Origin: Escherichia phage UPEC03
Direction: 5' to 3' (one strand)
Sequence record: MW250785
DNA: 64,000 nucleotides
Numbering within the stretch: position 1 is the stretch's first letter; every line of letters starts with the position of its first letter. The notes under the pieces were generated by a model. That model saw only the letters and a program-made list of their open reading frames with translations, had not been told where the DNA came from and made no database searches. The translations under genes and the position numbers were made by a program. Positions 17,521 through 41,184 of the stretch are shown here, piece by piece.

Positions 17521-18447
17521 TTATTTACGAGAATCGAAAATCACTTTACCAGCGTAATCAGAACCCATGACAGTTTGAGGTACACCGCCCTGATATTTTT
17601 CCGCGATGGTCTGCTGAACATCAAGTTCTTTCCAGCGAATCATTTCTGGTGTAATGGTACGCTGCAACACGGCGTTCGCTTCGGCTTCTTTCTTAGCCGC
17701 ATACAGACGGGCATCAGCATCACGCTCGTTAGCCTGTGCAGCATTGCTACGGGCTTCTTTATCGGCAATTGCCTGAACAACTGCCTGTTGAGCGATTTGC
17801 TCTTTACGTGCCAGTTCTGCTTTCTCTGCGTTCACCTGTTCTTCACGAATTTTCGTGTTTTCAACCTGCTTCTTGATCGCTTCCGGCAGGTCGATATCCT
17901 GCAAGAATACCTGTTTCACGGTGTAACCGTAAGGGCGGGCATACTCTTCAACTTCCTGCTGGATCGCGATCTGTAGCTGGCTTTGAACTTCTGCATTATA
18001 CAGATCCTGTGCTTTCGGTACAGATTTACCGAACTCACGGACAGTTGACAGAAGTTTTTCAGTCACATATTTATCCAGCGCCTGATCCTGACTACCCGCA
18101 TTGATACGGTTGATCGGGGCTTTGCTACCATCGAACTGTAACATCACGGTCATATCCACAGTGGATTTGAATTTATCCTGGGACGGAACCTGCAATTTGT
18201 CAAACTTCATTGCGATGTCTTTGGTGTTGAACACCTCGAAATCAGCCAGTGGATTTACCAGGTGGAAACCAGGCAGAACAGGCTTCGGTGAAACTTTACC
18301 CATGAAGGTTTGAGTTTTTACCGTACCATCCTGAACGATAGTGTACGAGTTCGGAACCAGCCACAGAGCGGCGATTACGCCCAGAGCGATCAGTGTGGTT
18401 TTCTTCGGGTTGTTTACGATAGTGTTTAAGTTCATCATTATTTCCAT
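17521..18447 (-). CDS. SPFH / Band 7 (prohibitin, HflC/K-like) membrane protein
   Basis: N-terminal TM segment LIALGVIAALWLV, SPFH-like core, A/E/K/Q-rich coiled-coil C-terminus. Confidence 0.7.
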   Translation of the reverse strand: MEIMMNLNTIVNNPKKTTLIALGVIAALWLVPNSYTIVQDGTVKTQTFMGKVSPKPVLPGFHLVNPLADFEVFNTKDIAMKFDKLQVPSQDKFKSTVDMTVMLQFDGSKAPINRINAGSQDQALDKYVTEKLLSTVREFGKSVPKAQDLYNAEVQSQLQIAIQQEVEEYARPYGYTVKQVFLQDIDLPEAIKKQVENTKIREEQVNAEKAELARKEQIAQQAVVQAIADKEARSNAAQANERDADARLYAAKKEAEANAVLQRTITPEMIRWKELDVQQTIAEKYQGGVPQTVMGSDYAGKVIFDSRK

Positions 18448-18508
18448 TGGGTTTATGTTTCAATTCGATAGTTATTCTATCATCACTTTTTCGCTTGTCA
18501 AACTCTTT

Positions 18509-18898
18509 TTAAGAAAGTTTTGTCAGCTTGTAAATCGTTTGATAGCACAAGCCTTTGATCTCGTCCAGGACGTTCTTCAATGAACTATCTACTGAATCAT
18601 AGATTTCGTTGGCTTCATCGGCTATTTTACGGAGATACGCGACCGTGTCAAGCACATTTTCTGTTTTTAATACGGGTTTGTATCGACCAGTAATGCCTAT
18701 ATGGATTTCGGTGAATTTATCAACCAAATCCTGCATATCTTCGTAAAACCCTTCAAATGCTTTATGCTGTGAATATGAACCAGTCGCAAAATGTGCGCTG
18801 TGCATATAGGTTACAGACATTAAGCAAGTGCCAATAAAGGCATCAATTTTACTCGCGGTATCGCGTTCTGTTACTTCGTTAAACGTCTGCATCTTCAT
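18509..18898 (-). CDS. Ferritin/Dps-like protein (tentative)
   Basis: HSAHFATGSYSQHKAFEGFYEDMQD resembles the Dps ferroxidase-site helix (two His 12 residues apart, then FE..YE..D); shorter than typical Dps. Confidence 0.4.
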   Translation of the reverse strand: MKMQTFNEVTERDTASKIDAFIGTCLMSVTYMHSAHFATGSYSQHKAFEGFYEDMQDLVDKFTEIHIGITGRYKPVLKTENVLDTVAYLRKIADEANEIYDSVDSSLKNVLDEIKGLCYQTIYKLTKLS

Positions 18899-18901
18899 CC
18901 C

Positions 18902-19186
18902 TTATGAACGATGAATAGCGGCGAATTCACTTGCAACCCGTAGCCCTAAACGTTTACATTCGGGTTCGGATTTACATTGCTTCTGCTGCCATTTTCGTTC
19001 CATGTAATTATAGAATAGTTCACTGATATTTACGCTGGGAGGGATGGTGTCAAGATATACCTGTAGCGCCGCATTGATATAGTAATCGAACTCTTTGGCG
19101 ACTACTGACCTATCATCAGCATGTGATGACGGAGACAAGATTAACAAACCAAACATCAGCGCTTTAGATATGCGTTTAATGTTCAT
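18902..19186 (-). CDS. Periplasmic lysis-inhibition protein, rI-like antiholin (tentative)
   Basis: 94 aa from ATG at 19186; signal/SAR-like N-terminus LLILSPSSHA; C-terminal two-Cys region; resemblance to T4 RI is from memory; located near tk. Confidence 0.45.
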   Translation of the reverse strand: MNIKRISKALMFGLLILSPSSHADDRSVVAKEFDYYINAALQVYLDTIPPSVNISELFYNYMERKWQQKQCKSEPECKRLGLRVASEFAAIHRS

Positions 19187-19236
19187 AAGCAATTCTCTAC
19201 GTGCTTACGGATCAACAATAGATCCGTTCCTGTATA

Positions 19237-19244
19237 TATTTATA
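19237..19244 (-). promoter_or_regulatory. Candidate T4-type late promoter (TATAAATA on minus strand)
   Basis: Exact TATAAATA about 50 nt upstream of the rI-like ATG, just downstream of a terminator. Confidence 0.35.
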
Positions 19245-19272
19245 GCAAAAAAGGGGCGATTCGCCCCTTATG
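19245..19272 (-). terminator. Intrinsic terminator (minus-strand orientation)
   Basis: GGGGCGAATCGCCCC followed by a T-run on the minus strand, after the stop of gene 19294-19686. Confidence 0.5.
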
Positions 19273-19293: not shown

Positions 19294-19686
19294 TCAAGTT
19301 ATCTCATACCAGCATAAGCTACGCTCAAAAGCGCGGATCTTATTTGCGTTCTCGATATTTTCATCCCATCCAATCACGCCAGCTTTCATCCGGCGTAACT
19401 CCTGACGCATTTTAGCGCGTACTTTCGAATCAATCTTTTTGACTGCGATTGAAAGCATCGCGGAGATATCACGATGAGCTTTGTTACCGTCGCGATTCAG
19501 GTTTTTATCGAACCGGATATATGCACAACCTGATTTGTGTTTCCAGTTGGTTGAGTACCAACGAATACCATCAGGGCTTTCTCCGTGCTGTGCATAATAC
19601 TGTGAAAATGCTTTTGTCTCTTCGATTTGTTCGATAGAGGACTTATCACGGACTGGAACATATTTCTTACGGTAAGTACGGCTCAT
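19294..19686 (-). CDS. Hypothetical basic protein (130 aa)
   Basis: ORF with ATG start between tk and rI-like gene. Confidence 0.45.
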   Translation of the reverse strand: MSRTYRKKYVPVRDKSSIEQIEETKAFSQYYAQHGESPDGIRWYSTNWKHKSGCAYIRFDKNLNRDGNKAHRDISAMLSIAVKKIDSKVRAKMRQELRRMKAGVIGWDENIENANKIRAFERSLCWYEIT

Positions 19687-19716: not shown

Positions 19717-20301
19717 TTAACAGTTCAGACCAACATTATCAAGAAGTTTTTCGTGATAATGTTTGCGACAGAGCGAAACGTATTTGTCTTCGGCTCCGAT
19801 CTCAACCTGCGCCCCTTCGGTTACGAAGTTGCCTTGTGCGTCGATACGTGCAACCGTAGTTGCTTTACGCCCACAGTGACACATTCCGCGCAGTTCTCGG
19901 ATCTCGTCTGCCCAGGCCAGCAACCAGTAAGAACCCTCGAACAGATTCAACTGAAAATCAGTACGCAGACCGTAAGCCATTACAGGGATTTCGAGTTCAT
20001 CAACAACGCGACATAGATCGAAAACGTTTTTCTTCGAAAGGAATTGCGCCTCGTCAACGAAGATGCAAGCAATTTTATTCCGGCGCTGAATGTCCCAGAA
20101 CAGATCCATATCAGGCGCAATCAATTCACACTTTTCGTTCAGCCCGATACGCGAACTCACTGTGTTTGATGTGCGGGTGTCGATTGCTGGCTTATAGATT
20201 ACAACTCGCATACCGCGCTCTTTGTAATTGTGCGCGTCCGTCAATAGTCGCGCACTTTTGCCAGCGTTCATGGATGCATAGTGATAATACAATTTAGCCA
20301 T
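19717..20301 (-). CDS. tk: Thymidine kinase
   Basis: MAKLYYHYASMNAGKSARLL (P-loop), VDEAQFL, C-terminal zinc ribbon CHCGRKAT...CRKHY; ATG at 20301 with GGAG SD; the listed ORF carries a 39-codon upstream extension. Confidence 0.9.
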   Translation of the reverse strand: MAKLYYHYASMNAGKSARLLTDAHNYKERGMRVVIYKPAIDTRTSNTVSSRIGLNEKCELIAPDMDLFWDIQRRNKIACIFVDEAQFLSKKNVFDLCRVVDELEIPVMAYGLRTDFQLNLFEGSYWLLAWADEIRELRGMCHCGRKATTVARIDAQGNFVTEGAQVEIGAEDKYVSLCRKHYHEKLLDNVGLNC

Positions 20302-38830: not shown

Positions 38831-39454
38831 TCACCCATTATGTTTGAAGTATTCGATCTGACGCAGACGTTTTTCTGCTGCCTCTTTCGAATCATATTCA
38901 CCAAGTTCTTTCGTGCGATCATGGTTCAGCACAACCCACTTATCGCCGCGATGTTCGATGTGCTCCGTGATGTCTTCAACTTTCTTATCAAGATCCAGCG
39001 GTTCAGCATCTTCCTCGATAATAGTCAAATCTACGGGCAGTGTCAACAGTCTTTTAACTCCGCTGATATCTTCGATGCGGGAATCATATGCGAGCGTTAC
39101 GTGTGGTTTGTAATCGTCATAATCGTATGTTGCTCCAGCATCCATTGCATCTTTGAAGCGGCTATGGAGATAATCAGATTCCAGAACGCCCACGATCGTA
39201 TTACCGTATTTCGTTTCCCACTTCTCCACGTCAACCAGTCGGGCAGGTTCAGAGATACCGGAGGCAGGGAACAGATCAACCGTCTTACGGCTATACACAA
39301 TCGTTGTATGCAGTTTTGCAGCGGAAACAGGATTCTCTACACCCAGAAGTTTTTGCACCTTCGCGAGCGCTTCACAGGAAGCCTGATCGAACTTCGCACA
39401 CATATAGATCCCCGGATCAACTACGGGTTTCGCTACTTCAATAAAACTTTTCAT
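38831..39454 (-). CDS. 2H phosphoesterase-like protein, candidate Acb1 (anti-CBASS) homolog with C-terminal extension
   Basis: Two H-x-T motifs (LHTTIVYS, PHVTLAYD) typical of the 2H/LigT fold; next to gp57A-like and gp1 genes, as 57B is next to gene 1 in T4. Confidence 0.5.
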   Translation of the reverse strand: MKSFIEVAKPVVDPGIYMCAKFDQASCEALAKVQKLLGVENPVSAAKLHTTIVYSRKTVDLFPASGISEPARLVDVEKWETKYGNTIVGVLESDYLHSRFKDAMDAGATYDYDDYKPHVTLAYDSRIEDISGVKRLLTLPVDLTIIEEDAEPLDLDKKVEDITEHIEHRGDKWVVLNHDRTKELGEYDSKEAAEKRLRQIEYFKHNG

Positions 39455-39512
39455 GTGTACTCCAAATGAAAAAGGGGCTTTCGCCCCCAGTGGTTAAACG
39501 CCTAAGCGTTAA

Positions 39513-39779
39513 TTATGCTTTTGATGCATCAATCGCTTCATTATCACCAGCGATTTCTACTGTTGCTGGCAGAAGTGCTTTGATCGCGCCGATCAGGGCA
39601 TCAGGGGATACACCCTGCGAACCGTCGATTTCCAGAAGACCGCAAATCTGGCCTACGAGTTGACGGTGATTTGCCAGTTCTTGTTCTTTACCCTGAATGA
39701 TTTCGTTCAGGTCGAATACACGGGCTTTCAGGATCAGGACATCGTTTTGAAGCTGTTGGGTTTGGTTTTGTTCAGTCAT
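39513..39779 (-). CDS. Tail fibre assembly chaperone gp57A-like
   Basis: 88-aa coiled-coil protein (...DVLILKARVFDL...IGAIKALL...); resemblance to T4 gp57A is from memory; adjacent to gene 1. Confidence 0.45.
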   Translation of the reverse strand: MTEQNQTQQLQNDVLILKARVFDLNEIIQGKEQELANHRQLVGQICGLLEIDGSQGVSPDALIGAIKALLPATVEIAGDNEAIDASKA

Positions 39780-39782
39780 TGT

Positions 39783-40451
39783 TTACACTCTTAAAAGATT
39801 GAATACATTAAGCACGTTGCGTTTCAAATCGTCTAACGTACCATTATTTAGGATTGTATAATCACTCAAGCCAGGTGTCAAACCTTTCTCCGTTGAATGA
39901 TTATCTTCAATACCAGTTTCACGTTCAAGGAACACAAAGCGAGTCCCGAACTTGCTCAGGTATTTATATTCGTGCGGTTGACGCACATCGGTAATGATAA
40001 AGTGATCCGCGTAGGATTTCAACATTTTTTGAAGCGCAATTGAAGTCCAGATAGACGGATCTACTTTACAAACAATATCAGTCCCGAACACCTGCATCAA
40101 ACGGCGAATCGTCCAGGGCTGGGTGTTTTCTTCGCAAATTTTATGAGCGATAACATCTGCGTTACTCATGAAGAACCCGCGAGAACTTAATTTTTTGATA
40201 CCGCTAGAAAACAGCGTGTATGCATCGTTATTGGACATCACCAGCGGGGCTTCACGATCACCCTCATAGAATGGGTTCTTCGCTGCCAGCGCTCGCAATT
40301 GCGTGTTATCGTGATGTTCCATAGAACGTTTCAGGATAGCTTTGATTTCGTCGGCTAACGCGATAACTTCAACATTGCGGAAGTTATGCACAACCATTTG
40401 AGCAACGGTATCTTTACCCGTTCGCTTTTTACCACAAATACCATAAATCAT
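39783..40451 (-). CDS. 1: Deoxynucleoside monophosphate kinase
   Basis: P-loop GICGKKRTGKDT; IRRLMQVFGTD, TDVRQPHE and HSTEKGL parallel T4 gp1 motifs. Confidence 0.85.
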   Translation of the reverse strand: MIYGICGKKRTGKDTVAQMVVHNFRNVEVIALADEIKAILKRSMEHHDNTQLRALAAKNPFYEGDREAPLVMSNNDAYTLFSSGIKKLSSRGFFMSNADVIAHKICEENTQPWTIRRLMQVFGTDIVCKVDPSIWTSIALQKMLKSYADHFIITDVRQPHEYKYLSKFGTRFVFLERETGIEDNHSTEKGLTPGLSDYTILNNGTLDDLKRNVLNVFNLLRV

Positions 40452-40999
40452 TTTTGCGTTTTCCGTGGAGTAGGCACGATCACCCGTCCGTCGATCTCAA
40501 TTTCCATGTGAGCGAAGTTGAACATCGTCATACAGGATACGGCTTCATCCGAATCATTGGTATACATAAGCTCAAGCTCTCCGAGGTTGGAGGGCCAAGC
40601 GCCATAGAAGCGAAATGTCGCTACAGTTTTTGACTGCGAGTTATCCAGGATATGCAAAGCCATTGCCTGTTGTGGTTCACTCCAACGCACGGAATCGAAG
40701 GTGTTAAAATCGACAGTACCGAGCATCCAAAGGTAAACCCCAAGATACGATCGCAGTTCTTCATCAACAGCAAAACGAATAGTCAGTGGATCGAACTCCA
40801 TTGCAGATCCTGGGATCTTCCCTCGAATCATTGGGTTCAGTGGGACATCCGTAATTGGAATGTTGATAGAAGGTAGTGTAACACCCTGAACTTGTAGTTT
40901 CAACCCTTTTACATAATCATTGTCAGGAATATCTAACATGAAGTTAGTAGGTGAAATCTGGTTCAGGATCATAGCAGTTGTATTCATGATGATCTCCAT
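40448..40999 (-). CDS. Tail completion / sheath stabiliser protein (gp3-like)
   Basis: 183 aa; 4-nt overlap with gene 1; T4 order 1-3-2-4. Confidence 0.45.
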   Translation of the reverse strand: MEIIMNTTAMILNQISPTNFMLDIPDNDYVKGLKLQVQGVTLPSINIPITDVPLNPMIRGKIPGSAMEFDPLTIRFAVDEELRSYLGVYLWMLGTVDFNTFDSVRWSEPQQAMALHILDNSQSKTVATFRFYGAWPSNLGELELMYTNDSDEAVSCMTMFNFAHMEIEIDGRVIVPTPRKTQK

Positions 41000-41025: not shown

Positions 41026-41184
41026 GAGCGAAGCGAACACACGAACGAAGTGAGTGTTATGTACGATGTACTGTTTATAATATTTATATTTTATATATAG
41101 AGAAAACAGTACATTTCCGTATACTTTTTATACAATCGTTAACTATCCGTCTTCGCTTCGCTTGACGGAACTCGCTTCGCTCGC
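41026..41184. promoter_or_regulatory. Divergent intergenic region with nested inverted repeats
   Basis: GAGCGAAGCGAAC (41026-41038) vs TCGCTTCGC (41153-41161, 41172-41180); inner ATGTACTGTTT (41066-41076) vs AAACAGTACAT (41104-41114) around an AT-rich core holding minus-strand TATAAATA (41081-41088). Confidence 0.4.

Follow-up and report, generated by a model that had tools for sequence, protein, structure and literature searches.

In bacteriophage T4, lysis inhibition (LIN) is reinforced on superinfection. The antiholin RI of T4 has been dissected by mutagenesis, and its interface 1 with the holin T comprises F30, M34, Y42, S53/E54, F56 and Y57, whose mutation impairs LIN; the same work also described G79, an aromatic side chain at residue 86 and a Cys pair as conserved (PMC11413866). 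The Cys pair C69/C75 is thought to form a disulfide (work cited in PMC11413866). The N-terminus of T4 RI was called a SAR domain in older work (cited in PMC8385771), a model that has been revised: T4 RI has a cleavable signal peptide, is processed after A24 and is released to the periplasm (PMC8385771). The uncleavable variant A24P still supports LIN, and it was proposed that RI binds T before a slow cleavage takes place (PMC11413866). In T4 the genes are arranged in the order tk, rI.1, rI, rI.-1. The TATAAATA motif between tk and rI.1 is the late promoter of the rI operon, which in addition receives early read-through transcription (PMC2962797).

Here we describe the corresponding locus in a stretch of 64,000 nucleotides from Escherichia phage UPEC03 (MW250785), which is called the window in the following. 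A preliminary description had proposed the ORF at 18902-19186 as a candidate for an rI-like periplasmic antiholin gene with its own late-type promoter. Very probably, this ORF is orthologous to rI and belongs to a T4-like phage of the genus Pseudotevenvirus (Straboviridae), in which its product would act as a T4-type antiholin. The coordinates of the gene and its surroundings are given in Table 1.

Table 1 Features of the rI locus in the window.
Feature	Position	Strand	Remarks
rI.-1 homologue (DUF5856)	18509..18898	-	starts 3-9 nt after the rI stop
rI gene, antiholin precursor	18902..19186	-	94 aa + stop; ORF, Pfam, PHROG, match to T4 RI, annotation of relatives
Mature periplasmic domain, aa 24-94 (predicted)	18905..19117	-	three helices, C71/C77 and holin-contact residues; AlphaFold2 model, Foldseek, invariant columns
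Sec signal peptide, codons 1-23, MNIKRISKALMFGLLILSPSSHA (predicted)	19118..19186	-	predicted cleavage after A23; n-, h- and c-region features and -3/-1 rule
Weak Shine-Dalgarno-like AGAG	19195..19198	-	9-12 nt upstream of ATG
5'-UTR hairpin ACGGATC-TATTGTT-GATCCGT	19207..19227	-	begins 4 nt after the predicted late +1; covariation
T4-type late promoter core TATAAATA	19237..19244	-	exact match; predicted transcript start A19231
Intrinsic terminator AAGGGGCG-AAT-CGCCCCTT + T run	19245..19269	-	closes the upstream transcription unit of tk and the 130-aa ORF
130-aa ORF (phrog_7774)	19294..19686	-	in the slot of T4 rI.1; without Pfam hit
Thymidine kinase (tk)	19717..20301	-	Pfam TK, E 2.4e-49; a 585-nt SemperBestia CDS maps here; synteny anchor

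The rI gene and its product

The ORF is a frame on the minus strand that starts with ATG (at 19186) and, as the preliminary description had it, encodes a protein of a size close to that of T4 RI (94 compared with 97 aa); its TAA stop lies at 18902-18904. A program-made ORF list gave a TTG-extended version of 96 aa (18902-19192). We prefer the ATG because it is used in the GenBank records of near-identical phages, where the same coordinates are an annotated CDS, and because it aligns with the homologues. The precursor reads MNIKRISKALMFGLLILSPSSHA up to the predicted cleavage point and DDRSVVAKEFDYYINAALQVYLDTIPPSVNISELFYNYMERKWQQKQCKSEPECKRLGLRVASEFAAIHRS behind it.

Over the 1.4 kb around the ORF, Cronobacter phage vB_CsaM_SemperBestia and Citrobacter phage Citrof4 share 99.6% identity with the window, and many Pseudotevenvirus (Straboviridae) phages of Enterobacter, Klebsiella, Citrobacter and Cronobacter share 96-99%. 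GenBank relatives with a 98.9% identical protein label it “rI antiholin” or “lysis inhibition regulator”; the existing labels read “rI antiholin” in Citrobacter phage Margaery (ALF01829.1), “rI: lysis inhibition regulator” in Cronobacter phage GAP161 and “putative lysis inhibition regulator” in SemperBestia. The gene thus belongs to the RI antiholin family as a bona fide member, and close relatives are already annotated in this way. The RI proteins of the window and of SemperBestia differ in one residue, I54 versus T. This codon adjoins the holin-contact pair S55-E56 and encodes Ile in the window, while SemperBestia, Margaery, Nando and 05F have Thr. No record with a protein identity of at least 99% to the window RI was found in the phage collection. 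Compared with phage Nando, dN/dS is 0.092/0.98 (a ratio of ~0.09), which argues for a real gene under strong purifying selection.

Pfam family PF24205 (“T4-like virus antiholin family”) matches residues 1-93 with 88 bits (E 3.7e-25), compared with a gathering cut-off of 27 bits and a score of 82.5 bits for T4 RI itself. Apart from PF24205, no family was above threshold in the Pfam search of the protein; a CENP-O match of 17.8 bits (cut-off 23.9) was dismissed as noise. The protein also matches PHROG 1246 (“lysis inhibition”, E 3.5e-28), and BLASTP aligns it with T4 RI (from NC_000866) over 93 residues with E 9e-12. The identity in this alignment is low (32%), which counts against an RI orthologue. 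With the single sequence as query, residues 32-91 align with residues 6-66 of 6PSK_R, the crystallised periplasmic domain of T4 RI (E 3.5e-4), and a four-sequence profile built without T4 reached the T4 antiholin in the PDB with E 1.6e-6. When all PDB sequences were searched, the significant matches were solely T4 antiholin chains, namely 6PSK, 6PX4, 6PXE and 6PSH.

The AlphaFold2 model, calculated from a shallow alignment of 9 homologues with T4 RI among them, has pLDDT values of 88-96 over residues 31-90 and consists of three helices (31-47, 52-68 and 74-92). In Foldseek it superimposes on 6psk_R and 6pxe_E with an rmsd of 1.3 Å over 66 columns (target-normalised TM 0.83-0.86, prob 1.00), and all other PDB matches had E > 3. 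The preliminary description had drawn its antiholin call from features of T4 RI and considered an alignment to the periplasmic domain necessary. This alignment has now been obtained, and the call is supported by the Pfam, PHROG, BLASTP, PDB and fold matches alike.

The residues that matter for LIN in T4 are retained as well. All seven interface-1 residues are kept in the alignment, as F33, I37, Y44, S55, E56, F58 and Y59, and Ile is among the residues allowed at position 34 of T4 RI (PMC11413866). C69/C75, G79 and the aromatic residue 86 of T4 correspond to C71/C77, G81 and F88, all of them conserved. Among nine RI homologues of 8 lineages, which belong to Pseudotevenvirus, Slopekvirus, Jiaodavirus, Zedzedvirus, Gualtarvirus, Gaprivervirus and Tequatrovirus, Y44, S55, E56, F58, C71, C77 and G81 are invariant. 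The two-Cys C-terminal region that had been pointed out before is hence a conserved property of RI homologues, and by analogy with T4 the two cysteines C71 and C77 would form a disulfide.

Predicted export signal and partner holin

The precursor begins with MNIKRISK, which carries three positive charges, followed by an 11-residue hydrophobic core, ALMFGLLILSP, with a mean Kyte-Doolittle value of 2.13 compared with 2.5 in T4 RI. The signal peptide aligns with that of T4 RI, and the site S-H-A↓DD fits the -3/-1 rule for signal peptidase I, as judged from rule-based inspection alone. The RI precursor is probably cleaved after A23; a cleaved signal peptide is favoured because S-H-A↓D-D is closer to the canonical motif than the I-E-A↓N of T4. 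In the preliminary description the N-terminus was called “Signal/SAR-like”. The features of an export signal are indeed present, whereas the term “SAR-like” follows the older literature and T4 RI has a cleavable signal peptide (PMC8385771).

An unlikely but credible alternative is that the RI homologue works membrane-tethered by an uncleaved signal anchor or SAR domain and inhibits the holin while anchored. The older designation of the T4 RI N-terminus as a SAR domain (cited in PMC8385771) would agree with this, as would the ability of uncleavable A24P T4 RI to support LIN (PMC11413866) and the short, moderately hydrophobic core in the window (KD 2.13). However, T4 RI is processed after A24 and released (PMC8385771), and the -3/-1 rule fits the site of the window better than that of T4. 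We therefore prefer an RI that is cleaved and released.

A tblastn search of the window with the T4 holin T found no match. SemperBestia (MW021756.1) encodes at 172453-173097 a 214-aa “putative holin”, which follows a tail-fibre assembly gene in the same order as in T4. Its identity to T4 T is 49%, Pfam finds Phage_holin_T in it with E 7.5e-56, and it keeps R104, Y110 and F111, the residues of T at interface 1 with RI. Judging from this 99.6%-identical genome, the phage of the window almost certainly has a cognate T-type holin of its own. The two sequences are not perfectly colinear. The dNMP-kinase and gene-3 homologues (~39000-40500) are displaced by ~0.7 kb relative to the offset at rI, which points to an indel in the interval from 19.8 to 39.8 kb.

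T4 RI.1 and RIII were also searched in the window by tblastn and neither was found. Outside the window, the gene-31 co-chaperonin homologue of SemperBestia is followed at once by a gene for a “hypothetical protein” of 83 aa (L014:47288-47539 (+)), the position that rIII has in T4. The protein was missed by tblastn with T4 RIII, and its full-length match to the RIII family phrog_1457 has a weak E of 2e-5. This weak candidate is probably a divergent, unannotated rIII.

Terminator, late promoter and leader hairpin

The gene order in the window, with an SPFH gene, rI.-1, rI, one intervening gene and tk, is as in T4. The DUF5856 gene (Pfam E 5e-25) is 35% identical to T4 RI.-1 (E 5e-31), and it starts so closely behind the rI stop that it is probably co-transcribed with rI. 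The SPFH/band-7 gene (17521-18447) has a near-consensus sigma-70 promoter just upstream, at 18474-18501 (-), with TTGACA, a spacing of 16 nt and TG-TAGAAT (11/12 matches), which suggests early expression independent of rI. The 130-aa ORF was considered as an equivalent of RI.1 and rejected, because BLASTP gave no alignment between it and T4 RI.1.

Two transcription signals had been reported upstream of rI, and both were verified. An exact TATAAATA lies at 19237-19244 (-), and the terminator ahead of it, at 19269-19251 (-), has an 8-bp stem with 6 G-C pairs, a 3-nt loop and T6, and ends 6 nt before the motif. A terminator is annotated in phage Margaery, too. On its own, the motif is not significant, since 3 exact copies were counted in the window and 2.5 are expected; enrichment in the window was therefore dropped as promoter evidence, and the weight of the motif comes from its position and its conservation. 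The sole other exact copies in the window are located at 39961-39968 (-) and 41081-41088 (-), one of them 81 nt ahead of the homologue of gene 3 (tail-tube tip) and one inside the dNMP-kinase gene. The plus strand of the window has no exact copy, although baseplate genes are encoded there; a deviation from the T4 octamer is therefore probable for many late promoters of this phage.

Concerning position, the ~168 kb formed by the window and the SemperBestia segments contain 11 exact copies of TATAAATA, and 7 of them are found 30-90 nt upstream of gene starts on the coding strand; roughly estimated, ~3% of both strands taken together lie at such a distance from a gene start. Five of these seven precede structural genes, which encode the portal, the scaffold, two long-tail-fibre subunits and the gene-3 homologue, and the remaining two precede a Seg-like homing endonuclease gene and rI. 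The annotation of SemperBestia includes a late sigma factor of the gp55 type.

Concerning conservation, we aligned the intergenic regions of the window, Margaery, Nando and the Slopekvirus phage 05F, whose RI is 75% identical. Pseudotevenvirus and Slopekvirus share an invariant block of 24 nt, TTTTTGCTATAAATATATACAGGA, which extends over the T run, TATAAATA and the start region, while the hairpins on either side of it have changed in sequence between the genera. The Slopekvirus terminator before rI (L008:1120-1140) is CGAGGC-TTCG-GCCTCG, at the same place with a wholly different stem and loop. Relatives from Jiaodavirus, Gualtarvirus and Gaprivervirus also have TATAAATA between tk and rI, and T4 has its own copy between tk and rI.1. 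The late-type promoter that had been attributed to rI thus gains support from its conservation across genera and from the T4 late promoter between tk and the rI operon (PMC2962797).

The start of the late rI transcript is predicted at A19231. This follows the T4 convention that late transcripts start six bases after the motif. The 7-bp hairpin behind this start (19227-19207) is part of the MFE structure, with z = -2.25. In the four phages, 7/7 pairs are kept, with three double compensatory changes and one change from A-U to G-U; the pairing is 100% in register compared with 18-43% in a control in which the 3' arm was slid. The covariation rests on two independent versions of the stem and is suggestive of a conserved structure but no proof of it. 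A scan of the rI intergenic region against Rfam gave no family match, a sub-threshold chance hit being all that was returned. Stem-loops at the 5' terminus could protect an mRNA from 5'-end-dependent decay, and the hairpin may be an mRNA-stabilising or translation-tuning element. At the place equivalent to the AGAG of the window, a ribosome binding site is annotated in Margaery.

Because the terminator separates rI from the upstream unit, rI is probably expressed mostly late. Going further, we tentatively put forward that rI of Pseudotevenvirus and Slopekvirus is cut off from upstream early transcription and has a cassette of its own, consisting of terminator, 24-nt promoter block and hairpin, which would make the antiholin strictly late, with the hairpin stabilising the mRNA or tuning its translation; we regard this as quite possible, without leaning towards it. 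If it is true, lysis inhibition would follow another timing than in T4, whose rI operon is also read from an early promoter.

Lysis timing and comparison with known systems

Following the T4 scheme, gp55-directed RNA polymerase would start at TATAAATA late in infection and transcribe both rI and the rI.-1 homologue. Sec would export the 94-aa precursor via its N-terminal signal peptide, which is probably removed by cleavage behind A23. In the periplasm, the three-helix domain with its C71-C77 disulfide as a brace would then bind the periplasmic C-terminal domain of the T-type holin one-to-one through a hydrophobic and aromatic surface formed by F33, I37, Y44, S55/E56, F58 and Y59. This binding would block oligomerisation of the holin, so that hole formation and release of the endolysin are delayed. 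Our data show the homology, the fold, the contact residues retained in both partners, the synteny and the conservation of promoter and terminator; for the timing of transcription, the cleavage, the disulfide, the binding of the holin and the phenotype, we infer the steps from T4.

It is very unlikely that the RI-family protein has drifted into a different role, or persists as a non-functional remnant, in a phage without RI-dependent lysis inhibition. Such a drift would be in line with the absence of a T4 RI.1 homologue, with an RIII that is weakly recognisable (phrog_1457, E 2e-5) and with the weak Shine-Dalgarno sequence. Our literature search found no LIN experiment and no LIN phenotype for Pseudotevenvirus, the papers merely listing ‘lysis inhibition’ genes. 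Against such a drift stand the strong purifying selection (dN/dS ~0.09), the conservation of all LIN-critical interface residues together with the matching residues of the holin, and the conserved promoter block. A third reading, in which the ORF encodes a small secreted protein without relation to RI, such as a factor for superinfection exclusion or immunity with just its size and signal peptide in common with RI, is refuted by the RI alignments. Phages often encode small proteins for export, and the first RI call still needed an alignment, but the matches to the family HMM, to T4 RI, in the PDB and in fold all point specifically to RI, which leaves this explanation with practically no credibility.

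A T4-type RI antiholin is the reading that we retain as very probable. Its significance hardly goes beyond correct annotation, in that a T4-like phage of the Pseudotevenvirus group has a recognisable holin/antiholin system for the timing of lysis. Since lysis inhibition affects burst size and lysis kinetics, this is relevant for the use of Enterobacter, Cronobacter, Citrobacter and Klebsiella phages in therapy. The mildly new element is the conserved cassette of terminator, late promoter and 5' hairpin, which suggests a lineage-specific control of antiholin expression; the one small addition to a known gene is the hairpin with covarying pairs where the late rI transcript is predicted to begin.

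Among phage lysis proteins, the SAR endolysins P1 Lyz and phage 21 R share with the RI of the window a weakly hydrophobic N-terminal segment that directs a lysis-related protein to Sec export. Their SAR domains are without a good signal-peptidase site. In contrast, the RI of the window has a plausible S-H-A↓D site, and its T4 homologue is cleaved experimentally (PMC8385771).

The rI genes of Pseudotevenvirus and Slopekvirus phages (Margaery, GAP161, SemperBestia and Klebsiella phage vB_KpnM_05F) are close relatives, with 75-98.9% protein identity, an identical gene order and the same terminator/promoter/hairpin cassette. Apart from I54, where the aligned SemperBestia, Margaery, Nando and 05F have T, there is no difference of note.

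Compared with T4, the RI of the window is similar in length and has a small-x-Ala cleavage motif at the same position of the alignment, the same three-helix domain, the Cys pair and the seven holin-contact residues. The gene is likewise placed between tk and rI.-1 with TATAAATA between tk and rI, and a T-type holin, as found in the near-identical SemperBestia genome, is almost certainly shared. The differences lie in the sequence, which is 32% identical and has a shorter C-terminus without the NIKLETE tail of T4, and in the arrangement of the control region. While T4 rI follows rI.1 after 12 nt and shares the late promoter upstream of rI.1, in the window rI comes after an unrelated gene of 130 aa and a terminator, with the promoter located directly before rI and followed by the 5' hairpin.
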